A stretch of DNA of 64,000 nt, taken from positions 125,924,001 to 125,988,000 of the forward strand of contig CM059431.1 in the NCBI GenBank assembly GCA_030390025.1, written 5' to 3'. Positions 31,311-55,520 of the stretch are shown one piece after another. The stretch comes from Squalus acanthias (lineage: Eukaryota). Made by a program: the position numbers and the translations under genes. Position 1 is the stretch's first letter. Every line of letters begins with the position of its first letter. The notes beneath the pieces are model-generated. The model made no database searches. It saw only the letters and a list, made by a program, of their open reading frames with translations, and had not been told where the DNA came from.

Positions 31311-32471
31311 TGAACGGATAATTACTAGTCCTAGCCCCTTTAGGGCTACCCTGGATCAGGCGTATTCCCCAGACGTTCACTTTCAACTAAAGTTTGAGGT
31401 AACCGAATCCTAAAGACGCTTAATTGGGTCTGAAGGTCCAGACTATCTCTCCCTAAAGGAAAGGAACAACCTGAAGATGTTACCGTCCTCCAGATAGCAC
31501 TTTTAATAAGTTTAGCTAGACTCCCCCAGAATTCTGCAACTCCTCACCAAAGAGCGTACAGAGATTGAGTTTGTGAGTTTGATACAGAAGTATTACGTGA
31601 GACAATTCTAAAAATATATAGATTTATTAAAGAACCGACATGTAATTTACAGTTGGTGATTCAATCATAACATTAACAGTTCCAAAAACAGATATCTTTT
31701 ACAATCTTACTATCAGAGATCCTTATTCTCAAATCTTAACTTCGTTACATTTTTACAGTTCTCAGTCTTTATTCCAGGATATCCAGCAAAATCAAATACC
31801 TTTTCATACCTTTGATCCCCGAGGTACAAAAAGTTGTAGACTTACAGAGCTTGCCTCTGAAGACCGAGAATCGCTTTGCCCCTTTACAGCGAATCTGTCA
31901 TCCCACTTGAAAGTTCAATATTTATATCCTTTTTCAGTGGTATGTCCTTTGAAGTTTTCTGCTGATGTAAGCTAATTATCTCTAGTCATTTTTCTGCTGA
32001 CTTCTGCTATTCTTACAGTCAGTTCAGCTGGTAGCTTTAAGAATCGTGTTTCTACCTTTAGGTGTTCGAAGCTTATCATAAAAACGATGTGACAGCAGAT
32101 GCATCTATTTGATGTCATTCTTATCAAGGTCTTCTGTTTGTGTCTTTTTAAGATGTGTAAATTAAAAACACCTCAACCGGGTGCACCATTGTCTTCTCAG
32201 ATACCTCAGCTGGTTGTAATACAGAATCATGTCTCCTGTGTTTCATTTGATTTCATTTTTACGAAGGCATATGTTTCTTAATTTTCTGTGTTTCTTTCCA
32301 AAGTGTTGGTTTAAGACACCTTAACAGGGTGCACCATTGTGTTCTTTCCAAGGCTTCAGAATATCAGGAACCTCCAACCTCCTGTTTCAATAAGGTTATT
32401 GATTCAGTGTCAACAACTTATCCTATCTCAATAGCCTGTATGCTGTTTACAGCTTCTCCATTGTTAGGTTT

Positions 32472-34183
32472 TGTAGAATTCGCAATATATCGCGATTTGT
32501 TTAATAAGGAGAAAACACAAAGTTTCGTTCAAACAGCTTTTATTTCAGTAGAATGCTGTCAGGTTTAAATTGGACACAAGCAGCCTGTAAAATGGCCGCC
32601 GCACCTCGTGACAGAACATTCTAGACTTTTCAACAGGCAGACAAGATGGCGTTCCATCAAACGTTTTTTCAAGATCGATAACGATTCAGCACAGTGAAGA
32701 TAATACACGAGACATTATGGGTTTACAGTATAAACATAGATACTGAAATCGGTCTCCCAGGTACAAAGGAAAGCCATTGTATCGAGTAATCAAGGGCCCA
32801 TCCAAAGGACATTAATATGTAAACTCCCAACGACTCTACGATGAGAGAGCCGTTAGCAGGTAGTTATACAGGACACTTGGAAGCCCCAAACCCCTCCAGG
32901 GAGAACACCGACCGATTTAACAATGGGAGAAATATTAACAGGTACTCAAACATTCATGAGTAGCCCCGAAACCCATTAAGGACGGAGATCACCCATACAA
33001 GACATTTGGGCGCCAAACCCTAAACAAAAGAATGGACATTATAGTTGGGCGGGAAACGGAAGATTTTTGCACTATAATTGCAGGCCCCAAACCGTCCATT
33101 CGCTCTCTTGCCGCGCTTGCTCGCTTGCTGCTTTTATCATCGTGGCTGCTCCTGTGTTTTATCCGGTCGATTCGTAACCTCGTGGCTGCTCCTGTGTACT
33201 CGTAGTTGGGCTTCTGCGTGCCTGTTGCCTCTTCTGAAAAGACTGTTGAACTTTCTGATCCGTTCGGATCTACCTCGTGTCGCGTAACGAAGACCTATGT
33301 TGGTAACTGGCAGCGGAACCAAAGGCCCGAGATGAGATGAGATGAGATGAGAGGAGAAGAGAAGAAGACCATATCCATCGCCACGGTCAGTAAATCCCGA
33401 CCGCGCCTATAGGTCGATCAGCCAAGTTTTCTCGCCAGGAAGTTTTCTTCTTTAAACTTCTAACAAAACATATTGCATCAATGATAACTGGACTGTGCAA
33501 ACACATCGTATCAATGATATTGACAACGGTGCTCCAAGATTAAACTTTGAAGCCCACCAACAGAGGTCTTCACCACAGCGGACGGTCCAGCCTACTAGCC
33601 GGAGCAGCAGAAGCAAGTAAACAAGTGGGACCAGGAGATCTCCTGACCGACACGTGGGAGCTGCGGTGAAAAACATCCGATCAGCTATTCGGAATTTCTC
33701 CGAGTTATTACGAGTGGTGAGCATGAGTCTCGAGATCCTACGAAGCTAGTTTAGGATAGATATTGATAGGGGAGGGTTTAAAGATTAAGGATATTTGTAA
33801 TGTGTGCCCTATTTACGTTGTGCCGTTCGTTCCTCGTTTCCCTAAGATTGACTATAACCGTTTGTAAGATTGTACTGTCATTAATCTGTGCGTATGACAT
33901 GTATTTCATAATTTTAAGTATCATGCAATAAAGATTTTCCATTTCGTACCATTCAAACCAAGTCTACATGAGTTTTATCTCCATTACTGCTCTCGCATCT
34001 AAGTCCAGTGTCTAGAACCGTAAGGGAGAGTGATTCGAACCACTCACAGGTGTGTCTAGTGTTCCCAGACTGGCTGGAGACCAGAACAGGCAACCAGGCC
34101 TAGACCCGCACTGACATACAGGCTGCACAGAGCCGCGTGAATCTCACAGGCTGCGAGACACGCAGGGTCAGGAATCCCTTACA
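32472..34183 (+). repeat. 5' LTR (1712 bp)
   Basis: Direct repeat of 43584-45295. TATAAT near 33073, AATAAA at 33927, (GAGAT)n near 33330. Confidence 0.97.
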
Positions 34184-34187
34184 GAAA

Positions 34188-35999
34188 ATGGCGACCGCGG
34201 CAGGACACTGGCAGCGAGAGGGTAGTGTGTTAGATTTTGGAATGACTGTACGAAATGTTATGCAGGAAAAGATAGCGGATTATGTGTTTGGAAAGGTTAA
34301 TCTAACTAAAAAGTGGATAAGCGAATTGTTAGCGGATAAGAGCCCACTAGAGGCAGCTGAAAGATGGACTGATAGTAAGGAACATAAAAAGGCAGTTGAG
34401 AAAGCAGTCTGGCTTATGTGCTACAAAAGGCAGGTTCAGATTTCAAACCAGACCATTACAGCGCTAACAGCTCGTGTCAGCCATTTAGAGGGAGAAATGG
34501 AGGAGAAGGTTTCTGGAGGGGAGGTGCTCATTAAGAATTTAAATGAGTTACACCAGGAAAGCCAGGAAGTCTCTAGTTACCTTAAAACAAGGATAGAGTA
34601 TCTCGAGTGCCAGGTCACTGAAGCAAAATTGAATGAGAGTAGGATGAAGGAAAGATGTAACCGCCAAGCTGCCCAGATAAGAACTCAAGAAGAGAGCTTA
34701 ATGGGGGTTAGGTCGGCGTATAAGTTGGCCCTTGAGGATAAGTTTCAGGGAGCCGACCATAGCGCCTGCCAAAAAGAGATAGAGAGCCTCAAAAAGGCCG
34801 TGAATAATGCGAACGGCATGGTGTGCCTTATCAATCCGTCGGCGCGCCAGCCGCTAGTAAATGAGAGATTTAGAAATTCCCCACCAAGTAAAGCAGAAGA
34901 AGTAGTAGCCACTGCGCCCTCCGCGCCCCCCAGCTATTCAGAAACCTGGGTTAGGGAGGAAGCAACGGAAGAAACAAAAGAGCCCATTGAAAAGGAGGTA
35001 GAAAAGGGATCGTTGTATCCAGTAACGGGTATTAAAAGGGGCCCGAGCAGAAACGGTGGGGAAGAACCGGGGGATCTCCTCGGACAGCTGGTGTTGCCTC
35101 ACAGTTCACATCAGCTGAGGGCTATGATAAACCACGTAAGGAAGCTGACCGAGATAGACGACCCTTCCGTACATTTCAGGGAAGTTGAGCAAGCCGCAGC
35201 CATTAACGGCTGCGATGATGGGGAGACAGCAAAAATGCTGCTGTTCTCGTTAGACAGCTCGGTCCTTCAGTGTCTCTCAGGCGAGAGCAAGAGGGGAAAC
35301 AAAAGTTATGAGGAATTGAAAAATGAGGTCCTAGAAGTAGTGGGGGCGAACGACGGAGGTCCGTTTGCTAGAGTGGGACAGACAGTGCAGATGGAGGGAG
35401 AACCCCCGAAGGTTTTTGCCGACAGGCTGTGGCCAGTATATGAGCGCAGCTGTCTAGGTGCGCCCGAGCGCGAAGATGTGGAAGGCGCCGCTCTAATTCA
35501 TTGGCTTAGGTGCATAATAGCCAACAGTTTACCAGCCGTTAGAGAGCAGGCAAAAGCCTGGTTCGATCCCAATGACCTCAACCTTACGGAAGAGTCGGTC
35601 TTGAATCGACTCACGTTAGGTTACCGTAACATAAGGGGTATGACGACACGTCCCTTTAAGGGAAGAGTACATGAGGTACGACCCGCAGCCCCGGCTCAAA
35701 GAGAGTGGCATCAGGAGGGTAATCGCGCCCCACAGGCAAGTAATGCCTGTTACGGGTGTGGGAAGACAGGGCACTGGCGCAAGCACTGCAGGAACCCTTG
35801 GAAGGATTCCAAGGATAAAAATCCCGCGGTCCGAGCCCAGGCGCCTGTCCCGCCTAAGGAAGCAAAGGCACCCACCCCTCCCGACGACCTCGAAGCAGTG
35901 TTAGGAGCCATGCGCAAGATGGTTTTGAATGCGCGTGGACAGGTGGCGGTCGCAACCGGCCCCGTAGGTGCCGCAGGACCGTCTAATAGTGCCCCATGA
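34188..35999 (+). CDS. gag: Gag polyprotein (coiled-coil N-terminus, PSAPPSY late motif, capsid-like region, one CCHC knuckle)
   Basis: Open 603-codon frame from the first ATG after the LTR; CYGCGKTGHWRKHC. Actual start codon uncertain. Confidence 0.9.
   Translation: MATAAGHWQREGSVLDFGMTVRNVMQEKIADYVFGKVNLTKKWISELLADKSPLEAAERWTDSKEHKKAVEKAVWLMCYKRQVQISNQTITALTARVSHLEGEMEEKVSGGEVLIKNLNELHQESQEVSSYLKTRIEYLECQVTEAKLNESRMKERCNRQAAQIRTQEESLMGVRSAYKLALEDKFQGADHSACQKEIESLKKAVNNANGMVCLINPSARQPLVNERFRNSPPSKAEEVVATAPSAPPSYSETWVREEATEETKEPIEKEVEKGSLYPVTGIKRGPSRNGGEEPGDLLGQLVLPHSSHQLRAMINHVRKLTEIDDPSVHFREVEQAAAINGCDDGETAKMLLFSLDSSVLQCLSGESKRGNKSYEELKNEVLEVVGANDGGPFARVGQTVQMEGEPPKVFADRLWPVYERSCLGAPEREDVEGAALIHWLRCIIANSLPAVREQAKAWFDPNDLNLTEESVLNRLTLGYRNIRGMTTRPFKGRVHEVRPAAPAQREWHQEGNRAPQASNACYGCGKTGHWRKHCRNPWKDSKDKNPAVRAQAPVPPKEAKAPTPPDDLEAVLGAMRKMVLNARGQVAVATGPVGAAGPSNSAP
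34189..34206 (+). promoter_or_regulatory. Primer binding site, tRNA-Ser-like (imperfect)
   Basis: TGGCGACCGCGGCAGGAC lies 5 nt after the LTR; 13/18 match to TGGCGTAGTCGGCAGGAT (tRNA-Ser complement recalled from memory). Confidence 0.6.
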
Positions 36000-38900
36000 C
36001 TAGAACCAGCACAGCCCGTCTACCTGTGTCCGCTCAGCTATGATGCGTGGAGGCGACCTGTGGTGGAGATGGAGGTAGAGAAACAGAAGGGCAGTTATTT
36101 GTTGGACACGGGAGCTTCTTGCACCATAATCCATACAGATGACCCTTTTGACTCGCCGCTATCTACCAAGGTCCCATTCACGCTGGCAGGGTTCACAGGG
36201 AAAGAACAGGCTGGCACGTTTTCCCTCCCGCTATCCATTCGTTTAGGAACACTTCGCCTTAAGTGGAAGTGTATACTGATGGCATGGCAAAAGGGGGGTG
36301 GAAGAGGTATTCTCGGGTCCGATCTCCTAGCGGGACACGGGATCCTCGTGGACCTCAGAAATCACTGTCTCTGGGGGGCTAAAGGTGAAAAAGGCGAGGT
36401 AATGGTAATTCAAGGGGAGGAAGAAACAGGGGTCCTGTGTACCGTACAGCCATCCGGAGGCTACGACCTCAGGCTTATGGTCGCAGATGTCCCAACGGAC
36501 ATGCAAACGTACGTGTCAGATAATATGCACGCGTTTGCAACCCACAAGCACGATTGTGGGAGGGTGGTCGGGTTTGAGGTCAGCGTAGATGGGGACCCCA
36601 TGACCCGACCCCAAAAGCAGTATAACTTCCCCAAAGAAGCAGAACCCGATATGGAGACAGCAATGTCTTCCTTGGTGCAGCAGGGCGTGTTGAGGCCGAT
36701 AGCCACACACGTGAACTCCCCATTATGGCCGGTTAGGAAGCCGGATAATTCGTGGAGAGCCACGGTGGACTACAGAGTCCTTAACAGTAACATTCCCGCC
36801 TGCGCGCCCACAGTAGCAGCAGTTGCTGACCTAATAGGGAGCATCCCAGCGTCCGCGACCACGTTCACGGTGCTGGATATCTCGAACGGTTTTTGGTCCA
36901 TCCCGCTGCGGCGAGAGGACCAGTACAAGTTTGCCTTTACGTTTAAAGGGCAACAGTACACGTGGAACTGTTTGCCACAGGGTTTCCACAATAGCCCCAG
37001 TATTTTTCATCAGTGTATGGCAGGAAGTTTAAAGGAGTTTAGTCAGCCCAATCAGATAGTACAGTATGTGGATGATTTGCTCCTATTTACGGACTCAAGG
37101 GAGGAGCACGGACCACTACTGGACGAGTTATTGGAGCTGTTAGCGAGAAAGGGTTTTAAAGTAAACCCAAAGAAAGCACGTATCGGTCAGCAGGAAGTAA
37201 AATTCCTGGGACTGACCCTACGCGCTGGGGAAAGAGTCATAGACAAAGCAAGGAGGGAGTCGGTGCAAGAATTACCGATTCCCAACAACGTAAGGGGTGT
37301 GAGGTCCTTCTTGGGACTGACCGGTTACTGCAGGGATTTTATCGAAGATTATGCGGCCACAGCGGCGCCGCTCCTCCGACTCCTCCATAAGGGGGTGGAG
37401 TGGCTTTGGGACGAGGGCTGCCAAGCAGCCTTCGAGAAGTTAAAAAGGGATCTGCAGACCGCGCCAGCCTTAGGGGCCATAGATGGGGGGAAGGAGTTTT
37501 TCCTGGAGGTAGCTGCCAGCGGAGACAGCTTAAGCGCCGTGCTGCTCCAAGAGCGTCACGGCAAGCTGAGGCCGGTTGTCTATTCATCCAGGGTATTAAC
37601 GGATGTGGAGAGAAGTTTCTCCAATTGCAAAAGGCACCTTTTAGCCACGCATTGGGCTGTGAAAAGATCAGCGATCTTCACAGGGCTCTCTCCCATCACT
37701 CTCCTCACACATCACACACCAACTAAGATGCTTCTGGATGGGAGGATTAAAGACAGGACCGTAAGCAGCGCACGCATTGCGCGTTGGACCCTTCTTCTCT
37801 CCCAGTTGGATCTTAGAGTAAAAGGTCTTTGCGAGCCCAGGCTTGCGGCCAATTTGGTATACCCCGGTACAGCCCACCGGTGTTCGGTGGAAGGGGTGTG
37901 GGACGTCAACATAGGTTTATGGGCCGGGATACATCCCACTGGGCGCGAGATTTATGTTGATGGGTCTAGCACAGTGTCTGCTGGCGAGCGACTCACAGGG
38001 TGTGGAGTTTATGACCCTGCGGCAGACCTTGCCCTGGCGATCAAGCTCCCTAGCACCATGAGCGCGCAGCAGGCTGAGCTGTCTGCCGTGGTGTACGTGG
38101 TGACCCACCCAGACATTTTCCCAACCCCATACACGATTTGCTCGGACAGTATGTTCACCTGCAATTCGTGTACGGAATACCTGGCCATTTGGTCCCGCCG
38201 CGGATACACCTCCGCGGACGGGCGACCTTTAACGGTGAAGCCCTTGCTGGAAAAGATCTTAGCCGCAGCAGTAGGGGAGGAAGGGGAGATTTTCATCCAT
38301 AAGGTGAAAGCTCACTCCTCCACAGAGCCCCGTGGGGAGGGCAACCGGCAGGCGGATGCGCTAGCCAGGGAGGGTGCCCGCGACGGCACTTTCTGGAACC
38401 CCTATAGGACCGGACCCATAGCAGCGGTCCGAGGCGGGGACGGGAATACCGGGAACACCAGGGTAGCATTGCCCCTAGACCTTAAGACCGTCCAAGCCCA
38501 GGATCCCGCCCTAAAAGCAGTCCTAAAAACGATTGCTGAGGGGAGGCAGGTAGAAGGTCCGTACAGTACGGCAACCCTCTCAGTTAAGGAAGGCATGCTG
38601 TTCCGCGGGGAGCAGTGGGTTGTGCCGCAGCAGCACAGGAGGGAATTCCTCCAGTTGGCTCACGAGGGACCAGGGGCAGGGCACCCCGGGCCCGAGGTTA
38701 CCTGGCAACGGGTAGAGCAAGCGGGATGGTGGCCGGGGCTCAGGGAACAAGTCCGCGAGTTCTGTGCAAACTGTCTTGTGTGCGCTGCAAACAACCCAGA
38801 CCCCCAGAAAAGGAAGGTGCCCATGGGACACGTAAGAAGGGTAGAGGGACCATGGCAGTCGATACAGATCGACTATATAGGACCCCTGCCCACCACCCAG

Positions 38901-40523
38901 GGAGGTTATAAATACTGCCTCGTCCTGGTAGATGTGTTTTCCAAGTGGGTGGAAGCCTTCCCTTGTCGAACAGCTACGGCACTGGGTACAGCAAAAATCT
39001 TGGTCCGGGAAGTGTTCTCGCGGTGGGGACTCCCCCGTTTCGTGGAGTCAGACCAAGGGAGTCATTTCACCGGCCAGGTGATGCAGAACACCCTCATGCT
39101 TTTGGGCATTGAAGGGAAGTGGCACGTAGCGCACAATCCCCAGTCATCCGGGATTGTTGAACGTATGAACCGGACCCTGAAGGAGAAATTGAGGAAAGAG
39201 ACTAGGAACTCGCCCCAAAAATGGGCGGAAGTTCTGCCTTTAGTCCTCATGGGGGTCCGGGCCAGTCAGTCAAAAAGTACGGGGTACTCCCCGCACGAGG
39301 TAATGACCGGCAGGCTCATGCGAACCCCCACCCATGTGCTAGCCCCGGTGCTCACTGAGGGTCAGCTTCAAGAGATCAGCAGGGACAAGTTCGCCCAAAC
39401 TCTCTTGGAGCGCCTGAAGCAAGTTTATGAGCAGGCGGCTGGGAACATGGGAAGGCAGCATCAGGGCAATCGCTTGTTGCTGGAACCCCGCAAAACGCGG
39501 GAGTGGGAAGTAGGAGACCAGGTCATGGTCAGAAACTACGCCAGAGTAGGGAGTCTGGAACCACTGTATATGGGACCCTACAACATTGTAGACAAGGCGA
39601 GTCCCATGGTTTACGCCGTAAAGGTACCTCGGCGCACTAAGTGGTTCCACATAAACCAATGCAAACTGTACCAGCCGGGTGCGCAGGGGAAAACTACAGG
39701 GGTAAATCCCGCCAATGGGAAAACACAGCCCCAGGTAGGACCACAAGGCACACAGGCAGGCGTAGCAGCTTGCATCAGAGGAAGGGACATCCCGGACGAT
39801 CATGCAGCGTTTTTCTGGAGTTGGGGGTTGGATGACGAAGAACCCAGGGTACCCTGGTCAGATGAGGATAGTGCAGATGAGCATAGTGATGATGACGGGT
39901 GGTTCCTGAGGAACGGTCTGGGGGGAATGGGGCCGATAGGTAGAGATCCACACGGGGTGGACACACAAGCTGCAGGTCCCGACAACAGGAGGGAGGAGCT
40001 AGAGGAGGCAGGGCCAGCCGCTATAGGAGCACAGAGAGTACCAATGTGGTTCCCAGAGATGTGGCCGCCCGCTTTGAACGTCCAGTCCTCAGGGGAGGCA
40101 GAGATCACGAGTGAAGGGCCGCCTGCTGGGCCGAGCAGGGCGGAGCCACGAACTGCCAGCCCCGAGGTTAGGGAGGCGGAGTCAGCGGAGGCGGAGCCGG
40201 CGACTGTGATGGAACCCCAGGTCGTCCCGTTAGAGGTCTCGGAACCCGGTCCGTCCGTCACGGAACCCCCGCCCATAGCAACTCCCCGTAGGTCAAGTAG
40301 AGAACCCCAGCCCAGGAGGATGTGGTCATGTCCCCAGACTGCCCCAAGGCGTAAAATTCAGGTTAAGATAACCCGGGTAGAGACAGGCCACATCGCAGCA
40401 GTAACAGGCTGCGGCAGATCAGAGGAAAGGGTCAGCGCAGCAACAGGCTGCGGCAGATCAGAGGGAAGGGTCAGTGCCCTCCCACCGTCGGGAAGAGCTC
40501 GCAGCAGCCTTCTCAGAATTTAA
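36000..40523 (+). CDS. pol: Pol (protease, RT, tether, RNase H, integrase, C-terminal extension), in frame with gag past a single TGA
   Basis: LLDTGA; LPQGFHNSP and YVDD; degenerate RNase H-like tether; IYVDGSS..SAQQAEL..SDS..GNRQADALA; HHCC; QIDYIG..ESDQGSHF..GIVERMN; GPY. Confidence 0.96.
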   Translation, partial: LEPAQPVYLCPLSYDAWRRPVVEMEVEKQKGSYLLDTGASCTIIHTDDPFDSPLSTKVPFTLAGFTGKEQAGTFSLPLSIRLGTLRLKWKCILMAWQKGGGRGILGSDLLAGHGILVDLRNHCLWGAKGEKGEVMVIQGEEETGVLCTVQPSGGYDLRLMVADVPTDMQTYVSDNMHAFATHKHDCGRVVGFEVSVDGDPMTRPQKQYNFPKEAEPDMETAMSSLVQQGVLRPIATHVNSPLWPVRKPDNSWRATVDYRVLNSNIPACAPTVAAVADLIGSIPASATTFTVLDISNGFWSIPLRREDQYKFAFTFKGQQYTWNCLPQGFHNSPSIFHQCMAGSLKEFSQPNQIVQYVDDLLLFTDSREEHGPLLDELLELLARKGFKVNPKKARIGQQEVKFLGLTLRAGERVIDKARRESVQELPIPNNVRGVRSFLGLTGYCRDFIEDYAATAAPLLRLLHKGVEWLWDEGCQAAFEKLKRDLQTAPALGAIDGGKEFFLEVAASGDSLSAVLLQERHGKLRPVVYSSRVLTDVERSFSNCKRHLLATHWAVKRSAIFTGLSPITLLTHHTPTKMLLDGRIKDRTVSSARIARWTLLLSQLDLRVKGLCEPRLAANLVYPGTAHRCSVEGVWDVNIGLWAGIHPTGREIYVDGSSTVSAGERLTGCGVYDPAADLALAIKLPSTMSAQQAELSAVVYVVTHPDIFPTPYTICSDSMFTCNSCTEYLAIWSRRGYTSADGRPLTVKPLLEKILAAAVGEEGEIFIHKVKAHSSTEPRGEGNRQADALAREGARDGTFWNPYRTGPIAAVRGGDGNTGNTRVALPLDLKTVQAQDPALKAVLKTIAEGRQVEGPYSTATLSVKEGMLFRGEQWVVPQQHRREFLQLAHEGPGAGHPGPEVTWQRVEQAGWWPGLREQVREFCANCLVCAANNPDPQKRKVPMGHVRRVEGPWQSIQIDYIGPLPTTQGGYKYCLVLVDVFSKWVEAFPCRTATALGTAKILVREVFSRWGLPRFVESDQGSHFTGQVMQNTLMLLGIEGKWHVAHNPQSSGIVERMNRTLKEKLRKETRNSPQKWAEVLPLVLMGVRASQSKSTGYSPHEVMTGRLMRTPTHVLAPVLTEGQLQEISRDKFAQTLLERLKQVYEQAAGNMGRQHQGNRLLLEPRKTREWEVGDQVMVRNYARVGSLEPLYMGPYNIVDKASPMVYAVKVPRRTKWFHINQCKLYQPGAQGKTTGVNPANGKTQPQVGPQGTQAGVAACIRGRDIPDDHAAFFWSWGLDDEEPRVPWSDEDSADEHSDDDGWFLRNGLGGMGPIGRDPHGVDTQAAGPDNRREELEEAGPAAIGAQRVPMWFPEMWPPALNVQSSGEAEITSEGPPAGPSRAEPRTASPEVREAESAEAEPATVMEPQVVPLEVSEPGPSVTEPPPIATPRRSSREPQPRRMWSCPQTAPRRKIQVKITRVETGHIAAVTGCGRSEERVSAATGCGRSEGRVSALPPSGRARSSLLRI

Positions 40524-40809
40524 AGGGGCCGCCCTGAGAACGGGCGGCACTGTAAAGTTATTAGGTTAAGTTTTAAGTTTTAGTTCAAGGTTAAGTTTGT
40601 AGTTTTAATAAGGCTAAGTTTGTAGTGTTTTGAACAGAAAACGATAAAATGATGGGAGTTTTAAGGCTAGGTTTAGAGGAAGTCTATTCAGCAAAGGTTG
40701 AAGTTTACGTGAGGCGAGGTCAGGGGACCCGCTCACCCTTCACAACAGCCAGAGACCTTTTTGCGAGGCTGGCTACCTCATTCTATCTGATCACAGGAAC
40801 CAAGGAAGG

Positions 40810-43161
40810 ATGGAACGACTTCTAGTATTGCTCGTGGCAATCGGATGTGGATTGGCCTATCGAGGCCACACCAAGGATGTCGTGGTGTTTGGATGTTCCG
40901 GGGACACGGCCCCCATCGCGGTGGATGGGACCGGAAGACGGAAGGCAGAGGGGACCAGCACCTATTTCCACAAGGGAAGGTGGCCAGGATGGCTGGGAAC
41001 GAACTCAACGGAGTATTCCAGCACATCGGGGTTCGCCTACAAAGAGACTTCTTTAATGTGCCCCAAAGTACGGATCATCGCACCCAGGATCAGCGTCACC
41101 GTCGGCAAACGGATTTGTTTGACCTGTAGTGGGGATGTCCCATTGAGCCGATGGTGGTGGCTGCGAAAGCTGAGCAAAACTATGAGAAACTCTTCGGTCG
41201 AGTGGGAACGACTGGGTAATAATACCCATCGGACAATTACGGGGACAGACGGACAAGTGAAAGTCTGTTGGGACAAATGGTGGGAACCGGATGAGGGGAT
41301 TTATGTATGTATGTGGGGGTCAAAGTACGTTTGCCCCAAAGGCATCTCCATATTTTTTATTAATCAGTGGCAGGATAACGGACAGGGGATGAGGTGGGAT
41401 GCGAGCACCAGGGGGTGCGGAGCCCCATTCTCCCCGATCCCAGTAAATGCCACTGAACTCATTACGCGCCCACGCAAAGCCCCGCCCACGATTCCGGTGG
41501 TTCTAGCTGAGGAAGAAGGGTGCCCTAAAACTAGTAAGGGACCCGGGAACGGTTTGGTACTGGTCCCCACAGACCAGATACTATTTCAGGGGGTACATTA
41601 CGCGGTGGCCTCGGTGATTTTAAATCTCACTGAGGTACGGTTACCAGAGTGGTGCCCCAAAAAGACGGAACAGTTGTATCAGGTCCTGTTGACCAAGATG
41701 TTCAGACAATTTTACGAGTTTGATTTTGCAGAAATTGATAAGGCAAGTTTGTACACCGCACCGCAGGAAGTTTTGGATCAAGTAGGGAGGCAAAGAAGGG
41801 GTTTGGTGAACGATGCGTTCACTGCTTTTAACACAGGGACATCTGTGGTCAACGCTCTAGACAGTGTGGAGCTGCAGACCCAGATTAATGGTTTAAAAAC
41901 ACAGTTAAAAGACATTCTAACAGATGAGAATAAAGTGGTAGGGTCGGGTCTGCATGAGGACCAAGCCATGACTCTCCATTTAAAGGAAATTATAGCAGAG
42001 CTGGAGAAACATGCGCGTACGGTAAATGCCCTGATCAGGGAAGATCGGAATGCATCCGATCAAGCTGCGCAGAACGAGGTGTGCGTGCTTTACGGGGCGT
42101 GGTTACTGGGCGAGGGCCGCAGTAATTTGGAGGATTTAAAACAAGGTTTGGTTCCGTCCTGGATAAGTAACAAACACCTACGGGCGCTCCACCCTTTTCA
42201 GAACGCATTAAGTCCGTGCCAGCTCAGGCTAGCTTCGGAAGCTTACCCAGTCCCCGTGGACTGCGGACGTTCAAACCATACTATTATGGGAATAGTATTA
42301 CGCATGCCGGTTTTGGGCAACACAGCAAAGCCCGCCCCGGTATATCGGGTAGAGAACATTGGTGTCATTCAGGGGGGAGCCCACATTCGTTATGCAGCGG
42401 TTCCACCTTACGTCATCCGCTGGGAGCAAACGATGACAGGTACAGATCTCTCTGGTTGTCGTGGCAGGGGAGCACACATAATACTGTGCCCCCAGCACTT
42501 GAATGCCTTTTTAACACCACAGTGCGGGTTCAGAACGGCTGGCGCCAAGTCCATGAATTGCACCATGGAGGCAATGGCACAAGATCATGTGCCTCCGCAG
42601 GTAGCATACATCGGGGGTGGAACATATTGTGTTACCACTGCAGCGCAACACTACCAGCATGGAAACCGTAGCCGGTGTCCGGTGAGTGACAGCAGTTTCT
42701 GTTTTAAACCCAGGGCTGAAGTTCAAGTAGCACAACAGCGAATTATCCCAATCCCTGAACCATCCACTGTTCATCTCACAGTAAAAGAGAATTTCACCGA
42801 CTTGCAGCGATTTGTCGCACATTTTGGATACCTCATTCCCCCTCTCCCTGAGCATTTAACCAAACTTCTGAAAGCCGTCGCGGTATCACAGAAACATTTT
42901 TATACATTAGAACAGAAAACTGTCGAAATAGGAACAGACATTTTGGACATAGTGGTTCCACCGTGGTGGAATCTGTTCACCAATATTGAAGTGCCTTCAT
43001 GGATCCGAATAGCCTCCCACATTTTAGTCGTCTGTCAAGTGTTTATTGTAGTGTACCTATTGTTCATACATTGTAAAAGAGACAAGCGCCTCACCAAGCA
43101 TGAAAACACGGGAGAGTGGCGAGAACGTTACGTGCGCGTGCACGATGAGAGCACCGTGTAA
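40810..43161 (+). CDS. env: Envelope glycoprotein, 783 aa: signal peptide, Ig-like segment, furin site, F-protein-like fusion subunit, TM anchor
   Basis: MERLLVLLVAIGCGLA signal; RQRR|GLVNDAFTAF; heptad repeat; Cys-rich region; ILVVCQVFIVVYLLFI TM; N-glycosylation sequons; upstream acceptor-like TTCTATCTGATCACAG ending at 40796. Confidence 0.9.
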   Translation: MERLLVLLVAIGCGLAYRGHTKDVVVFGCSGDTAPIAVDGTGRRKAEGTSTYFHKGRWPGWLGTNSTEYSSTSGFAYKETSLMCPKVRIIAPRISVTVGKRICLTCSGDVPLSRWWWLRKLSKTMRNSSVEWERLGNNTHRTITGTDGQVKVCWDKWWEPDEGIYVCMWGSKYVCPKGISIFFINQWQDNGQGMRWDASTRGCGAPFSPIPVNATELITRPRKAPPTIPVVLAEEEGCPKTSKGPGNGLVLVPTDQILFQGVHYAVASVILNLTEVRLPEWCPKKTEQLYQVLLTKMFRQFYEFDFAEIDKASLYTAPQEVLDQVGRQRRGLVNDAFTAFNTGTSVVNALDSVELQTQINGLKTQLKDILTDENKVVGSGLHEDQAMTLHLKEIIAELEKHARTVNALIREDRNASDQAAQNEVCVLYGAWLLGEGRSNLEDLKQGLVPSWISNKHLRALHPFQNALSPCQLRLASEAYPVPVDCGRSNHTIMGIVLRMPVLGNTAKPAPVYRVENIGVIQGGAHIRYAAVPPYVIRWEQTMTGTDLSGCRGRGAHIILCPQHLNAFLTPQCGFRTAGAKSMNCTMEAMAQDHVPPQVAYIGGGTYCVTTAAQHYQHGNRSRCPVSDSSFCFKPRAEVQVAQQRIIPIPEPSTVHLTVKENFTDLQRFVAHFGYLIPPLPEHLTKLLKAVAVSQKHFYTLEQKTVEIGTDILDIVVPPWWNLFTNIEVPSWIRIASHILVVCQVFIVVYLLFIHCKRDKRLTKHENTGEWRERYVRVHDESTV

Positions 43162-43583: not shown

Positions 43584-45295
43584 TGTAGAATTCGCAATAT
43601 ATCGCGATTTGTTTAATAAGGAGAAAACACAAAGTTTCGTTCAAACAGCTTTTATTTCAGTAGAATGCTGTCAGGTTTAAATTGGACACAAGCAGCCTGT
43701 AAAATGGCCGCCGCACCTCGTGACAGAACATTCTAGACTTTTCAACAGGCAGACAAGATGGCGTTCCATCAAACGTTTTTTCAAGATCGATAACGATTCA
43801 GCACAGTGAAGATAATACACGAGACATTATGGGTTTACAGTATAAACATAGATACTGAAATCGGTCTCCCAGGTACAAAGGAAAGCCATTGTACCGAGTA
43901 ATCAAGGGCCCATCCAAAGGACATTAATATGTAAACTCCCAACGACTCTACGATGAGAGAGCCGTTAGCAGGTAGTTATACAGGACACTTGGAAGCCCCA
44001 AACCCCTCCAGGGAGAACACCGACCGATTTAACAATGGGAGAAATATTAACAGGTACTCAAACATTCATGAGTAGCCCCGAAACCCATTAAGGACGGAGA
44101 TCACCCATACAAGACATTTGGGCGCCAAACCCTAAACAAAAGAATGGACATTATAGTTGGGCGGGAAACGGAAGATTTTTGCACTATAATTGCAGGCCCC
44201 AAACCGTCCATTCGCTCTCTTGCCGCGCTTGCTCGCTTGCTGCTTTTATCATCGTGGCTGCTCCTGTGTTTTATCCGGTCGATTCGTAACCTCGTGGCTG
44301 CTCCTGTGTACTCGTAGTTGGGCTTCTGCGTGCCTGTTGCCTCTTCTGAAAAGACTGTTGAACTTTCTGATCCGTTCGGATCTACCTCGTGTCGCGTAAC
44401 GAAGACCTATGTTGGTAACTGGCAGCGGAACCAAAGGCCCGAGATGAGATGAGATGAGATGAGAGGAGAAGAGAAGAAGACCATATCCATCGCCACGGTC
44501 AGTAAATCCCGACCGCGCCTATAGGTCGATCAGCCAAGTTTTCTCGCCAGGAAGTTTTCTTCTTTAAACTTCTAACAAAACATATTGCATCAATGATAAC
44601 TGGACTGTGCAAACACATCGTATCAATGATATTGACAACGGTGCTCCAAGATTAAACTTTGAAGCCCACCAACAGAGGTCTTCACCACAGCGGACGGTCC
44701 AGCCTACTAGCCGGAGCAGCAGAAGCAAGTAAACAAGTGGGACCAGGAGATCTCCTGACCGACACGTGGGAGCTGCGGTGAAAAACATCCGATCAGCTAT
44801 TCGGAATTTCTCCGAGTTATTACGAGTGGTGAGCATGAGTCTCGAGATCCTACGAAGCTAGTTTAGGATAGATATTGATAGGGGAGGGTTTAAAGATTAA
44901 GGATATTTGTAATGTGTGCCCTATTTACGTTGTGCCGTTCGTTCCTCGTTTCCCTAAGATTGACTATAACCGTTTGTAAGATTGTACTGTCATTAATCTG
45001 TGCGTATGACATGTATTTCATAATTTTAAGTATCATGCAATAAAGATTTTCCATTTCGTACCATTCAAACCAAGTCTACATGAGTTTTATCTCCATTACT
45101 GCTCTCGCATCTAAGTCCAGTGTCTAGAACCGTAAGGGAGAGTGATTCGAACCACTCACAGGTGTGTCTAGTGTTCCCAGACTGGCTGGAGACCAGAACA
45201 GGCAACCAGGCCTAGACCCGCACTGACATACAGGCTGCACAGAGCCGCGTGAATCTCACAGGCTGCGAGACACGCAGGGTCAGGAATCCCTTACA
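43584..45295 (+). repeat. 3' LTR (1712 bp)
   Basis: Same length as the 5' LTR; one substitution found by eye (T32782 / C43894). Confidence 0.97.
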
Positions 45296-45666
45296 GTTTT
45301 TAGATTTTCAATCCCAGTTTGTCATGTTACAATAAGGCCAGAATTATTTCAGAGAATGGTGTATTTTTCTGAATATGGCTTATTCCTTCACACAACCCTC
45401 TTGACCAAGAAATGAACTCGAGCATTGAGTCAATGTTACTAATAAGGTTACAATAGCACATTAATTTCATGAAATTCACAAAAGCCTAATCATGTGCTAC
45501 ATGAAAATTCCTTTTAAGTCATCCTAGGACAATGTTTTGCCTTATTTTAAATTGAACACAATTTAAAAGGATGACAGGTACATTGTCATGCAATTACAAA
45601 ACAACATGTACTTAGAATGTCCAATCGGCAGATGTACGTTCTGTAGAGGTGAGTTATTCATATGAG

Positions 45667-46014
45667 TCAAGGAGACGTCATTTGGAAGTAGCTGAAGCTT
45701 GACACGCTGTTCCTTCGATCCAGCGTGTGGACACATTCTTGTTTTCGTAAAGGCCTTGCCAGGCGCTCAGTTGATTCCATCTTCATCCGCGGTGTTTTCC
45801 TCCTTCGTTGAAGTAACTTGTTGATCTTTCTTTGTTTCGGTTGTGGCTTTTCGCGAATCCAATTCCTGAGGCGTTGCCAAGCATCGTGTGGAGGAGTCGG
45901 CGACACCGTCTGACTGACCGTCGTCAGTAGTTCGATCGCATCCATTTCCTGTGTCGTGCTCCAAGCTGGGTCTTGAAAGACAGTGTACAACTGCACCTTG
46001 TATTGTTCCTCCAT
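45667..46014 (-). pseudogene. Possible env leader remnant of the foamy-like provirus
   Basis: ATG-initiated ORF overlapping the pol 3' end where env would start. No recognisable motif; under 300 bp remain before the LTR. Confidence 0.35.
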
Positions 46015-48943
46015 TCCGGTATCCCGCAGGACATCTTTTGAGATTGTCTATGGAGACAGTTTTAAGAATATGCTTGCCATTCGGCTGATTAATATGTATT
46101 TTAACTGTTCTTTTGTTAATAACAGTATGTATTTGAACAGGTTTTTTCCACTTTGGTTTTAAACCAGGTTTTTGCTCAAACTTCTTTTCCTGTACCCATT
46201 CTCCTACTAGGGGTTGCCATGCTTTGTTTGTCAATTTTTTCTGCCTATTTGCCTCCCTTATCCTCTGATCAATTTGATGAATCTCCTCTGTTATTTCTTT
46301 TTTTAAATCTAACTGTCGCTGTCGGGTCAAGGACTCAGAGAGTGCAGAGGCAATAAAAGAACTATGGGTATGCGGTGTATGCATCTCAACCCCATACATC
46401 AGATAATATGAAGTTTTAGGGGACACTGTCCCTGATGCAGATGCGGGCACATTATTAAGTGATAGCTGCACCTCTGGAATGACGGTGGTCCACTTATTTC
46501 CCCTGATTCTCAACAGTTTGACCAATAGCTTTTTTACTTCCTGGTTTTTACGTTCCACCAGCCCCGCTGATTGCGGATGACGTGGCGTGCTGTGCTCTAA
46601 CCCAATCCCCCTTTGTTCGCAGTAGTCTTTGAAGACCTTGGAGACAAAGGCTCCGTCTTTAACAGAGTGTAAGATTTTGGGTGCACCAGCTACAGTAATT
46701 ATGTCAGTAATAGCATTGGCGAGTTCGTTTTCCGAAACAGTTTTTGTGGGGACCAGCCAGCAGAAGGAAGTGCATCCATCTACACAAACGAGAACATATC
46801 TGTATCCAAAAGACGGGGGAAGTGGTCCAATAAAGTCAATAAAGAATTTTCCCATTGGCTCTTCAGCTTTCACAGGAGCCAATGGTGGTAGCTTAATTAG
46901 TGATGATTTATTGATTAAATAGCATGGCTCACAATTTGCCACGTATGTTTTACAGGCCTTAAGCATGCCTGGCCATCAATATAAGGGGGTCAATTTGCAG
47001 AATGTTGTTCTGGCACCACAATGTGCTAGACCTATGCCCTCGTGAGCTTCTTTTACAAGCTGTTCTCGTTTGTGTCTCGGGGGTACTTCTCTGTTTTCCT
47101 TGGGCAACTTAACTAGCACAATACCAGTAGGGATTTCCGAATAAAAGTACTTTGGTGGATATCCTGGTGGATTCTCTTTTGTTGGGTCTAATAGCTGAAT
47201 CAGTTCCTCATCCTGATTAGCTGCCCGTTCTGCCCTAGTGATTACACTAATATTGGCAGGCCTCTCTTGAGGGGATGTCATGCAGACCGAACGTTTCACT
47301 TGTTCATCTGCAAGACTGTTTCCTTTTGAGTGTACTGTCCCAGTGGTATGCCCGTTTACATGAAACACCTGAAAATTCTGTTTCTCCATTCTCGAACGGA
47401 GAATGTCTTCCCACAATGACTTATGTTTTATGGGTTTACCCTTATGATTGGTAAAATTTGTTTGTTCTCAGAAAACTAGATCTTGGTTATATCCTCTTTT
47501 ACAGTAGTCACTATCCGTACAGATTAGTGTGGGTTTAATAGGGTCTGCCTTTTCTAAAGCATACCATAATGCTGCAGCTTCAGCATATTGTGCTGTCTTA
47601 TGGCCAAGGGGTATGGACAGTAATTCTTCTGGATAAAAAGAATAGGAATCTCGAAAAGTCCCTACTACTATCCCCATGCCAACTGAGGATTGTTGGGATG
47701 TCCCTTTTTTAATCGTCATTGAAGATCCATCGCAGTAAATGACTTGATGGTATTCTGTAAGCGGTCTCACAGGCATTTGTCTGATTCCCTCCTCCGTATC
47801 ATCATCCTCCTATGATGGGGAGATGCTCTAAGTCCATTTCCGGGGAGAGGAATTTAAAAATGAGTGTAGGATCATTCAAGAATGATGCCCATTTATCATA
47901 TTGGATCTGGGTGGCTCTTTTTTATGTTGATTAAATACCCAGCTGTTGTAAGTCTGGATAAAACACTATCAATGGCTTTCAAGTGTTCTTGGAGATTGTC
48001 ATGTGACAGATATATGTCGTCCACATAAGAATTGACGTTAGGTAGGTCTTTTAAAAGGTCAATGATGTGGGCTGAAAAGAGAACGGGACTGTTTTGAAAT
48101 CCCTGGGGCAATCTGGTCCAGCAGTGCTGATGGCCATCGGGTCCAGTCATCACTGTTTTTGGCCAATTAGCTTTTTCGATTGGATGTGACCAGAAGCTGT
48201 TTGCCAGATCAATACAAGATTTATATTTTTTCCTCGTGATTCCAGAGAAGGGCTGTGGAATTTTGCTGTTGTGCAGTATGTGGGGCCATTACCCTAGTTA
48301 AGGCTATATAATCGACCACTAATCGCCACCTCCCATCTGGTTTAGCAACACCAAACAATGGTGAATTAGTTCTAGATGACATTTTGAATAAGACACCTTG
48401 TTCTGTTAGTTCTTTGAGCGTTGTTAGCAGATCTATTTTTCCTTTGTGGTCTTGAATAGGCCACTGTTTTTTAGGTTTGTGCCAGCCAGCATCAAATGGG
48501 TGGGGTTTGATGTCTATCTTTCCACATTGATTTGGATGGCGTTGTAGATACGGGTAGTATCTATTAATTAGTTGCTCGAGGAGGTCTTTGCCTCCCCCCG
48601 CTAGGCAAGTTCGATCAAGCTGTGTCCGAACATGTTTTTCCCTGTCATCCTGGTCTGTGGATGCTTCTACAGGTCTGGTTGAGATTTTAAGGTACTGTTT
48701 CATGTCTGGTTGTCTTATAATGAGGGAACAGGTCAATTGTGGTACCAGTCCTACATCTAGGGTCACCGTGATTCCATATATGGTAATAGGTATTTTGTAA
48801 AAATTAATTATTTTGGTTTTGTCTTGTGTGAATCCCCCTAATGGTCTTTTACAAATTGGGCTCCCCAAATCTGTCCACTTAGTTTTTATAATTGCAAGAT
48901 CTATTACAGTGTAATCAGCTCCAGTATCAAACAGGGCCTTCAC
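45767..48943 (-). pseudogene. pol: Foamy-like pol (protease, RT, RNase H, integrase) with stops, frameshifts and an internal deletion
   Basis: LFDTGA; KPDGRWRLVVDY; CWTRLPQGFQNSP; YVDDIYLSHD; YCDGSS..GMGIV..IPLGHKTAQYAE; NQDEELIQLL..GYPPKY; KFFIDFIGPLPPS.GY.YVLV; HPQSAGLVERKN. Confidence 0.93.
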
Positions 48944-49071
48944 TTATGTGTTTGTGGGCAAGGTTGCCAAGGCATAGGGGAATTCAAGAGGCCCTGGCTG
49001 GGTGCCCGGCCTTCCATCCTGGGATTGTTCATCCTCAGGATCCTGAGCTTCATTTGCTGCTTTGTCTTTAA

Positions 49072-50589
49072 TTATTTTAACTGATTTTTGTTCCTCCCTC
49101 TTGGGGGATCATGTTTTCCAGATATCTTAGGGGGTTTGTCGGACATTTTATTATCTTGACGATCCTCCTGTTGGGGTGGACGTTGGTTCTGCCAGGAATC
49201 TTTTTGATCCCCATTTCGGTTTTCCCGGTATCCTCCCGTGGCTCTCTGATAGTTTTGGCCAGTGTAAAAGCTGTCCCCATAGGGAGTCCACTGTCCTTCG
49301 CTTTCCTTTCGAGGTCTAGCCCCTCATCTATCCCATCTTTCCGGGGAGAAATCTTTCTCGTATTGTGGGCGAGTTGGGGGTGTAAACCTTCTGGAATACC
49401 CTCTTGGGGGTCCCGAGCCACGAGTTTGTGTCTGGGCGGGGTGGACTTGAGACTTGGGTCTATACAGTCCTTGTTTCTGAATACCAAAGGTACCTTCTCC
49501 GTTTTTTTTATCCCTAGTTTCTGATCTCATTGTAGGTTTAGTTTGGGGTAGACCTAAGAGGTCATGATTTAATTTGATAATACGATTGACATTATCCCAT
49601 CTTTGTTGGTTATCTCGATAATCGTTTAGAGCACCCTCACAGGCAAGTTTGAGGGCTGTATTTTGGTATTGATTGGCCAGGCAACCATGGACAATGTCCC
49701 AGTTATCCTGTGTAAGTACTTTGCCTAATCTGTAGACAGCTACCAGCCCTTTAGTTGTGGCTGTATTAGTGAGTATTTCCTTGATGGAACCCATTACATG
49801 CCCTCCCTGAGTTGCCGTGAGAACATAGGCGTATATTTGAACCCAGTTGTTACACTGGTTTAATGGGGGAATTAAGTCTGAACTTAGTATCATTTGTAGT
49901 AGTTGCCTCAGGTGTTGGGCATTCCAATCTTGGCAACAGGTTTCCAATTTATCAAGGTTAGTTAGAATCCAGCAGGTTTTTTCCTGGCTGGTGTTTCCTG
50001 GTCTACCACACATTGTGTAGATAGAGCTCAGGTTTACGTGACCTAGGGGCGCAATGTGTGATTGCTGGAGTTGGCTTACTGGGCCAGTAATCATTGCACC
50101 TCCAGCATTTAGATAAGATTGAGCTAGTACCTGTTGGCATTGATTATAATGGATTCTAAGCTGTCTATAGTTTTCTCGAAGATTCTGGTCATTTATTTCT
50201 TCATGAGTTTGCCACCTTAACCGGAATCCATGGCCCCCAGGAGCATAGGCTGCTCCGGGTCCTACTATTCAGCCATGGTTGCCACCACCTTGTTGGGCAC
50301 CGTTCATTAGGCCTCCCAATTGTGCGGGTGTGCACCTTATCATTAAGGAATTTTGTGGATTTGGAGTATTTGTTTGATTATCCCACTGGATATTCTGTAT
50401 CGCCTGGTTCTGGGGATCAACATCAATCGTGCCATGAGTTCTAACGACTCCATCGGTATCAAAGACTTCTATTTCAAAAATTATCACTTGGTTTTGTGGA
50501 GGTACAGGGATAGGATTATTTCCCCTCATAAAGCAATCATTTGAATTTCCTAATAAGAAGACTTGGCCAATTCCGACAGGGTTTGCCAT
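49072..50589 (-). pseudogene. gag: Foamy-like gag (one frame, two internal TGA stops)
   Basis: ORFs 50269-50589 and 49324-50094 are in frame. LTQDNWDIVHG resembles the spumaviral (D/N)NWDLVWG block. G/R-rich C-terminus, no CCHC knuckle. Confidence 0.82.
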
Positions 50590-50852: not shown

Positions 50853-53800
50853 TGAAGGGATAATTACTAGTCCCAGCCCCTTTTGGGCTACTCCAGATCA
50901 GGGGTATTCCCCAGACGTTCACTTTCAACTAAAGTTTGAGGTAGCCAAATCCTAAAGATGCTTAATTGGGTCTAAAGGTCCAGACTATCTCTCCCTAAAG
51001 GAAAGGAACAACCTAAAGATGTTACTGTCCTCCAGATAGCACTTTTAATAAGTTTAGCTGGACTGTAACGTTCCGGATATTATGAGGGTCCGTGACGTCT
51101 CGGACCGTGTTTTCAGAATCCTCAAAGGGGAGGGGGAACAATCACAAGTCGTGGTACACATCGGTACCAACGACATAGGTAGGAGAAGGGACGGGGATTT
51201 AAAACAGGAATTTAGGGAGCTAGGTTGGAAGCTGAGAGCCAGTACAAACCATGTTGTAATTTCTGGTTTGTTGCCGGTGCCACGTGCTAGCGAGTTGAGG
51301 AACAGGGAGAGAGTGCAGATAAACACGTGGCTGCAGGGATGGTGTAGCGGGGAGGGTTTCAGTTATGTGGATAATTGGAGCACATTCTGGGGAAGGTGGG
51401 ACCTGTACAAACAGGACGGTTTGCACCTGAACCAGAGGGGCACCAATATCCTGGGAGGGAAATTTGCTACGGCTCTTCGGGGGGGTTTAAACTAATTTGT
51501 CAGGGGGATGGGAAACAGGGCTGTAGTCCAGGAGCCAGTGGTGAGTGCAGGGAGGTACTGAGGAGGGTATCAAGGTCGCAGGAATGTACCGGCAGACAGG
51601 AAGATGGCTTGAAGTGTGTCTACTTCAATGCAAGGAGCATCCGGAATAAGGTAGGAGAACTTGGAGCGTGGATTGGTACTTGGGACTACGATGTGGTGGC
51701 CATTACGGAGACATGGTTAGAACAGGGACAGGAATGGTTGTTGGAAGTTCCGGGGTATAGATGTTTCAGTAAGAGTAGGGACGTTGGTAAGAAAGGTGGA
51801 GGAGTAGCATTGTTAATCAAGGATAGTTTAACAGCGGCAGAAAGGCAGTTCGAGGGGGATCTGCCGTCTGAGGTAATATGGGCTGAAGTTAGAAATAGGA
51901 AAGGAGCGGTCACGTTGTTAGGAGTTTTCTACAGGCCCCCAAATAGTAATAGAGATGTGGAGGAAGAAATTGCAAAGCAGATTATGAATAGGTGTGGAGG
52001 TCACAGAGTAGTTGTCATGGGTGACTTCAACTTTCCAAATATTGATTGGAACCTTTATAGGTCAAACAGTTCAGATGGGATAGTTTTTGCACAGTGTGTG
52101 CAGGAGGGTTTCCTGACACAATATGTGGATAGGCCGACAAGAGGTGGGGCCACGTTGGATTTGGTACTGGGTAATGAACCGGGCCAAGTGTTTGATTTGT
52201 ATGTGGGAGAGCACTTTGGAGATAGTGACCACAATTCGGTAACTTTCACTATTGCAATGGAGAGGGATAGGGCCATACGGCAGGGCAGGGTTTATAATTG
52301 GGGGAGGGGTAATTATGATGCGATTAGGCAAGAATTAGGGAGTATAAGATGGGAACAGAAACTATCAGGGAAAGGCACAAACAAAAAGTGGAGCTTTTTC
52401 ATGGAGCAATTACTGCGTGTCCTTGATAGGTATGTCCCTGTCAGGCAGGGAGGAAATGGCCGAGTGAGAGAACCATGGTTCACAAAAGAGGTTCAATGTC
52501 TAGTCAAGAGGAAAAAGGAAGCGTATGTAAGGATGAGAAAACAAGGTTTAGTTGGGTCGATTGAGGGGTACAAGGTAGCAAGGAATGAGCTAAAAAAAGA
52601 GCTTAGGAGAGCTAGGAGGGGGCATGAGAAGTCCTTGGCGGGTCGGATCAAGAAAAACCCCAAGGCCTTTTACTCTTATGTGAGAAATAAAAGAATGACC
52701 AGGGTGAGGGTAGGGCCGGTCAAGGACAGTAGTGGGAACTTGTGCATGGAGTCAGAAGAGATAGGAGAGGTGATGAATGAATACTTTTCGTCAGTGTTCA
52801 CCGAGGAGAGGGGCCATGTTCTTGAGGATGAGAGTGTGATAAAGGTGGATAGGCTGGAGGTGGTAGATGTTCTGAGGGAAGATGTTTTAGCAATTTTGAA
52901 GAACCTGAGGGTCGATAAGTCCCCTGGGCCAGATGGGATATATCCTAGGATTCTTTGGGAGGCAAGGGAGGAGATTGCAGAGCCTCTGGCTTTGATCTTT
53001 GGGTCCTCACTGTCCACGGGAATGGTGCCAGAGGACTGGAGAGTGGCGAATGTTGTTCCTCTCTTCAAGAAAGGAAATAGGAATGACCCTGGTAATTATA
53101 GGCCGGCTAGTCTTACTTCGGTGGTTGGTAAGATAATGGAAAAGGTCCTGAGGGATAGGATTTATGACCATTTGGAAAGGGGCAACTTAATCAGGGATAG
53201 TCAACACGGATTCGTGAAGGGTAAGTCTTGCCTAACAAATTTGATTGAATTCTTTGAGGAGGTAACTAAGTGTGGAGATGAAGGTAGAGCAGTTGATGTC
53301 GTATACATGGATTTTAGTAAGGCGTTTGATAAGGTTCCCCATGGTCGGCTCATGAAGAAAGTAAGGAGTTGTGGGATAGAGGGAAATTTGGCCGATTGGA
53401 TAAGTAACTGGCTATCTCATAGAAGGCAGAGGGTGGTGGTGGATGGAACATTTTCGGACTGGAGACCAGTTACCAGCGGTGTGCCACAGGGGTCGGTGCT
53501 GGGTCCTCTGCTGTTTGTGATTTTTATCAATGACTTGTAGGAGGGGACTGAAGGGTGGATCAGTAAATTTGCTGATGACACCAAGATTGGTGGAGCAGTG
53601 GATGAGGTGGAGGGCTGTTGTAGGCTGCAAAGAGACATTGATAGGATGCAGAGCTGGGCCGAAAAATGGCAGATGGAATTTAACCCTGATAAGTGCGAGG
53701 TGATTCATTTTGGTAGGGCAAATTTGAATAAGGATTACAGGGTCAACGGCAGTGTTCTGAGGAACTTGGAGGAGCAGAGGGATCTGGGGGTTCATATCCA

Positions 53801-55516: not shown

Positions 55517-55520
55517 CACC

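Follow-up and report, generated by a model that had tools for sequence, protein, structure and literature searches.

A UGA-CUAG stop at the gag-pol junction of a young provirus from Squalus acanthias: a putative type II readthrough signal

The gag-pol junction

We analyzed a stretch of 64,000 nucleotides from Squalus acanthias (GenBank assembly GCA_030390025.1, contig CM059431.1, positions 125,924,001 to 125,988,000 of the forward strand), hereafter called the window and numbered from its first letter, which contains a complete provirus of a retrovirus. The sole break between its gag (34188–35999) and pol (36000–40523) is a single TGA codon followed directly by CTAG (35997–36003), and we propose that Gag-Pol is most probably made by programmed type II readthrough of this UGA. 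The unspliced RNA would be translated from the gag start, the majority of ribosomes would terminate at the UGA (35997–35999) and release Gag, and a minority, probably a few per cent, would insert an amino acid there, the following CUAG weakening termination, and continue in frame. The product would be a Gag-Pro-Pol protein of ~2100 aa, by which a high Gag:Pol ratio would be fixed; a hairpin predicted 6 nt downstream may boost the rate. Readthrough of a few per cent suits the needs of a retrovirus.

The junction codons are CCA (35994–35996), TGA, CTA (36000–36002) and GAA (36003–36005), and the listing of open reading frames (ORFs) gives two abutting stop-to-stop frames, 34104–35999 and 36000–40523, in one and the same frame. 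An earlier annotation made from the bare letters (the sequence-only reading) had described this gag end and a frame open from there into the protease, and both descriptions are borne out. Its statement that no ATG precedes the GTG (36060–36062) at which the ORF listing begins Pol stands for in-frame codons, the first of which in the pol frame is the ATG at 36069, but not for the other frames, in which ATGs at 36040 and 36043 lie ahead of the GTG. The heptamer TGACTAG occurs in the window about as often as expected (7 observed versus 7.05), so its abundance is unremarkable and the unlikely part is its placement directly at the gag stop: the probability of CTAG immediately 3' of a given stop, computed from the base composition of the element, is 0.0037. 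A UGA followed by CUA, in frame between two coding regions, places the site in type II rather than in the gammaretroviral type III, which has UAG-G and a purine-rich spacer. An Rfam scan returned eight weak matches, none of them at the junction. Bypass of the stop by frameshifting or hopping, the route that alpha-, beta-, delta- and lentiviruses usually take (PMC1224870; here and below, statements from the literature refer to the passages of each source available to us), could make use of the downstream hairpin, but we regard it as extremely unlikely, because gag and pol share a frame, neither alternative frame is open across the junction and 35850–36110 contains no slippery heptamer.

Why the stop has to be bypassed is seen from the protease. 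Residues 16–46 after the stop align with residues 5–35 of HIV-1 protease, with weak single-domain scores and an exact spacing from W-x-R-P to DTG. The GTG at 36060 and the ATG at 36069 correspond to protease positions 10 and 13, C-terminal to the conserved W-x-R-P. The first in-frame ATG thus lies inside the protease fold, so that Pol requires passage through the stop, and separate initiation at either codon would cost the protein its N-terminal protease strand. On the Gag side, all three homologues terminate within a residue or two of the Gag end in the window. The four frog Pol models with a protease motif (P0013–P0015 and P0018) are all annotated to begin three residues ahead of the catalytic Asp, the same annotation artefact as the GTG start here. 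Readthrough would explain why automatic annotation divides such elements into a Gag called "uncharacterized" and a Pol called "NYNRIN-like" that begins inside the protease. A separate start of Pol, by termination-reinitiation, by leaky or internal initiation at GTG 36060 or ATG 36069, or from an internal promoter, appears very improbable to us. The ATG at 36069 does have G at −3 and +4, the lokiretrovirus element Loki-Lro has an ATG two codons past its stop, and Tca2 of Candida albicans has a minor promoter at its junction (PMC2194720), but both starts would remove the first 9–12 protease residues, the two out-of-frame ATGs are closer to the stop, and from established retrovirology a Pol unfused to Gag would need some other route into the particle. 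Readthrough is the simplest route to a whole protease.

The sequence-only reading also held that UGA-CUAG is an efficient eukaryotic readthrough context, and published reporters in HEK-293T cells agree: readthrough reached 31% for OPRL1 and 3.5% for MDH1 and was abolished by deletion of CUAG, and the motif is conserved through vertebrates (PMC4132726). The type II signal has been defined as UGA-CUA/CGG with a 3' stem-loop at a short spacer (PMC3159437). From the need for an intact protease, this tested motif and its recurrence in lokiretroviruses (see below) we infer that the UGA of the provirus is read through, as that reading had proposed.

The junction in lokiretroviruses

Lokiretroviruses are the sister group of retroviruses, and a nearly identical signal is present, unremarked, in their published sequences (PMC7947760). 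The supplement of that paper holds 24 consensus elements, in nine of which we placed the gag-pol junction by eye. Seven of the nine have TGA-CTA at the end of gag, the next base being G in Ofa, Cne, Pyo and Sau and A in Bsp, Dcl and Lro. The frame continues into the annotated pol in six of the seven, among them Cne, for which the authors annotated no gag; in Bsp it enters a homologous pol N-terminus, and the authors' pol ORF starts in a different frame. The junction of Tfu reads TGN-CTA-A and is followed by a frame break further on, and the ninth placed junction is that of Pfl, with a sense codon before CTA. The nine junctions do not count as independent events, being taken from consensus sequences that the authors built for related teleost elements. 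A TGACTAG near the pol start of Loki-Lch was discounted as out of frame, and six of the 24 elements have no gag entry in the supplement passages. The available main text gave no matches for stop codon, readthrough, frameshift or suppression, and the split among lokiretrovirus elements between a gag and pol separated by UGA-CUA and a fused gag-pol passes without remark there. A term search of Odin supplement file 1 (PMC9040795) gave no matches for TGACTAG or TGACTAA.

These junctions also bear on splicing, which could remove the stop to give Pol or Gag-Pol as in foamy viruses, with CTAG as a 3' splice site (AG at 36002–36003). CTAG does contain YAG, splicing in the snakehead retrovirus SnRV is complex (PMC12193657), the coelacanth gene model P0016 spans the junction, and an AG ending at 36037 looks more like an acceptor, with 14 of 19 pyrimidines upstream. 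The AG at 36003, however, has just 11 of 19, and A follows CTA in five of the nine placed junctions; such A-type contexts lack the AG that could serve as acceptor in the G-type. An acceptor would, moreover, leave unexplained why the stop is UGA and in frame with pol. On balance we consider splicing improbable. Of the eight joints listed in aligned sequencing runs, two of which may be RNA, none ends at 36004 or has GT..AG ends, an observation to which we give no weight in this judgement.

Other copies of the element

Near-identical sequence is found in 20 of 24 listed sequencing runs (12 studies, 8 organism codes), none of them recorded as RNA. To look for the same stop in other copies, a check that the sequence-only reading had suggested, contigs from four runs (organism codes A, B, C and F) were aligned to 33400–37000 at 80% likeness, and the best-supported 40 of 533 variants were inspected. 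The bin 35941–36061 is covered in all four runs. Among these 40 variants the window differs from nearly all contigs at 35493, 35853, 36185 and 36412, and none falls at 35991–36061, so the check turned up no majority variant at the junction; differences on the flanks together with none at the junction make a stop private to this copy unlikely.

An alternative is that a nonsense mutation created the stop in this copy or its lineage after insertion, the active virus having had one fused gag-pol ORF; it could appeal to fused ORFs in relatives (P0016 and eight lokiretrovirus entries). We rate it as very unlikely. The long terminal repeats (LTRs) differ at 1 of 1712 nt and all ORFs are open, and a young provirus with three open ORFs argues against a chance nonsense change; the stop lies exactly at the Gag end common to the three homologues, the four runs have no majority variant there among the 40 inspected, and a weak search found no longer, fused homologues of the window's Gag.

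Several observations weigh against readthrough of the UGA or narrow its support. The coelacanth model P0016 passes from Gag to protease without a stop, by a sense codon or by a splice in the gene model, and Loki-Pfl has a sense codon before CTA-A within a fused gag-pol ORF. Seven further lokiretrovirus entries (Oja, Sri, Ame, Sme, Str, Npa and Pma) carry an annotated gag-pol fusion. Because lokiretroviruses form a clade of their own, the recurrence of the motif in them lends the mechanism no more than analogical support. At the junction of SnRV, the named virus closest to the element, the sequence is UAGGGC, and in a reporter the gag-UGA-pol junction of Tca2 did not by itself direct readthrough (PMC2194720). 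The hairpin at 36006–36066 is absent from the 12 lowest-z of 180 folding windows. Minority variants may exist at the stop among the other 493 of the 533 variants, and no DNA of the element's own clade, such as that of its frog, coelacanth and skate relatives, was found in scans of three collections, viral contigs and metagenomes included. The metagenome scan gave six loci at 28–33% identity, and a motif scan of viral contigs gave six loci, none with a tblastn match to the window's Gag or Pol.

RNA structure downstream of the stop

The sequence-only reading had proposed folding the ~150 nt downstream. For the 154 nt that begin at the stop, two hairpins are predicted (−53.6 kcal/mol, z −2.5) by methods that leave pseudoknots out of account. 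The first (36006–36066, ~−27 kcal/mol) begins 6 nt past the stop, close to the spacers of 8–12 nt of alphavirus stimulators, and is a candidate stimulator, albeit a weakly supported one: its z is only −0.6 to −2.2 depending on the bounds, unremarkable among the 180 folding windows. The second (36084–36150) lies over the protease active-site codons and has z −4.8 (0 of 200 shuffles, with bounds picked after the fold had been seen).

Phylogenetic placement

A reverse transcriptase (RT) tree was built from 72 sequences, 58 of them retrovirus-like or most similar and 14 random outgroup members, drawn from the 241 left after 28 near-duplicates had been dropped from 269; reference sequences were labelled by motif or source names. 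The window RT falls inside the retroviral clade (support 100/97; 96 in a 30-sequence analysis) and outside both class I and the clade with the lokiretrovirus motif. It shares an open fork with P0177, a sequence that corresponds to the SnRV RT given in the PMC7947760 supplement. In approximately unbiased (AU) tests on the 30 sequences, grouping the window with class I gave p 0.038 and with lokiretroviruses a borderline p 0.051, whereas the union of the window, its near relatives and SnRV was not rejected (p 0.49), which does not establish a clade. The element thus appears to belong among basal, snakehead-retrovirus-like retroviruses, with its RT, like that of SnRV, in an unresolved basal group; that it is SnRV-like is plausible, not shown. 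Elephant shark, coelacanth and frogs are known hosts of SnRV-like endogenous retroviruses (ERVs).

Three other identities were considered and rejected. The window RT has LPQGF instead of the lokiretrovirus CPFGY, and the two lie in separate clades of the RT trees (with the borderline AU value above); the 15 YVDD passages viewed, out of 144 in the PMC7947760 supplement, all have a PFGY-type motif, in one of them PFGL. A class I (gamma/epsilon) ERV disagrees with the position of the RT outside that clade. Foamy viruses have a Gag without zinc knuckle and a separately spliced pol (PMC1224870), and a CCHC knuckle is present here.

Comparison with known readthrough systems

The alphavirus nsP3-nsP4 junction and the vertebrate UGA-CUAG genes (OPRL1, OPRK1, AQP4, MAPK10 and MDH1) carry the same heptamer as the window, and in MDH1 and ONNV the first 8 nt of the context are identical to UGACUAGA of the window. 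Alphaviruses share with the window a downstream hairpin at a short spacer (predicted, in our case), and their alternation of stop and sense codons at the site is paralleled by Loki-Pfl. In contrast to these viruses and genes, the signal in the window joins retroviral gag and pol. Moloney murine leukemia virus (MoMLV) resembles the provirus in its one-frame gag-pol, interrupted by a single stop after the zinc knuckle and before the DTG motif of the protease; it differs in using UAG with a pseudoknot and a purine-rich spacer of 8 nt in place of UGA-CUAG and predicted hairpins, and the window RT lies outside class I. The layout gag-UGA-pol is also that of Tca2, an unrelated Ty1/copia element whose junction failed to give readthrough in a yeast reporter (PMC2194720).

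Readthrough at gag-pol is textbook knowledge. The sequence-only reading contrasted the UGA with the signal of gammaretroviruses; the contrast is right in that MoMLV uses UAG and a pseudoknot, but it overstates the novelty, because UGA at gag-pol is already on record for SSSV, ZFERV, RMEV and XtERV-S, which, with SnRV, share with the window an in-frame stop at this place. The hexamers on record for fish and frog retroviruses (XtERV-S stands outside this comparison) are UGAAGA, UGACGA, UGAAGU and UAGGGC, none of them UGACUA. In the literature searched, from which most subscription papers were out of reach, no earlier description of UGA-CUA(G) between gag and pol of a retrovirus came to light, and the available parts of an August 2026 review contain no retroviral UGA-CUA case and no match for "loki". 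What is new is apparently this CUA(G) context, which seems to have gone undescribed for retroviruses.

Lokiretroviruses resemble the element in a tether and second RNase H, in features of an F-type Env and in TGA-CTA at seven of nine placed junctions, and differ in RT motif and clade; the available text of PMC7947760 names no cartilaginous fish among the host classes. It is conceivable, though rather unlikely, that UGA-CUA(G) readthrough is an old trait from the base of the retrovirus tree, shared through common ancestry by basal retroviruses of cartilaginous fish and lokiretroviruses, with switching between stop and sense codons as in alphaviruses, and with the UAG-pseudoknot and frameshifting derived later. 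The likelier explanation is convergence on a strong cellular motif, because gag and pol are fused in the lokiretrovirus entries from lamprey and frog and the SnRV junction is different. Which of the two applies matters for understanding how Pol was made in the first retroviruses. If our proposal is correct, an alphavirus-type signal would join the known means by which retroviruses control their Gag:Pol ratio, in two deep, translationally unstudied lineages, and the junction would offer a compact natural readthrough cassette from aquatic vertebrates.

Provirus structure and genomic surroundings

The provirus has the full layout of the Retroviridae, with LTRs, target-site duplication, primer-binding site, gag, pro-pol, env and purine tract, and is young: the 5' LTR (32472–34183, plus strand, 1712 nt, TG...CA) and the 3' LTR (43584–45295, plus strand, with a short purine tract just upstream) have their one mismatch at 32782/43894. 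The 4-nt target-site duplication (32468–32471 and 45296–45299) is corroborated by an empty site, as the second copy of the host repeat carries the 4-mer once. The primer-binding site (34189–34206, plus strand) begins with TGG 5 nt past the LTR and putatively matches tRNA-Arg(UCG). This tRNA is a near-cognate reader of UGA; its occurrence beside a UGA stop is probably a coincidence.

The gag ORF (plus strand) has 603 aa from its first ATG and one CCHC knuckle at ~35748–35789; a Pfam search of the window's own Gag gave no match, while zf-CCHC was detected in all three Gag homologues. The first ATG (34188) overlaps the primer-binding site, and the Met at 34260 is kept in four of four homologues, so the true start may be at 34260. 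A skate supplies the best Gag homologue (50%), and among named Pol homologues those of frogs and coelacanth rank first (44–45%), in line with a cartilaginous-fish host. The pol frame (plus strand, 1507 aa) encodes, by domain search, protease (catalytic Asp codon at 36105), RT, tether RNase H, second RNase H and integrase. It extends ~280 aa beyond the integrase SH3 region (~39680–40520) as an acidic, Pro-rich tail, in which a short tandem repeat near 40395–40470 has the lowest folding z among the 180 windows. The env ORF (40702–43161, plus strand) has an RQRR site, F-type fusion-protein features and a C-terminal hydrophobic stretch. Its language-model features match Fusion_gly, Baculo_F and Gypsy env clusters of the Atlas at 0.93–0.94, which we take as a lead only, and Pfam gave no F-protein match in Env. 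The N-terminal part of Env is weakly similar to an Ig domain (E 1.3), in a retrovirus with a non-lokiretroviral RT.

The provirus is inserted within one terminal repeat of an older minus-strand element, whose repeats (31520–32471 plus 45296–45394, and 54475–55518) are 95% identical. The internal part of the latter (45770–50268, minus strand) matches the Pfam spumavirus Gag (1e-14) and spumavirus A9 protease (2.5e-7), integrase and SH3_11, and we regard it as an endogenous foamy-like virus, disrupted by stops and frame breaks and with scant room for env. Nested in it is a long interspersed nuclear element (LINE; 51375–54056, plus strand) with endonuclease and RT and an open stretch of 721 aa.

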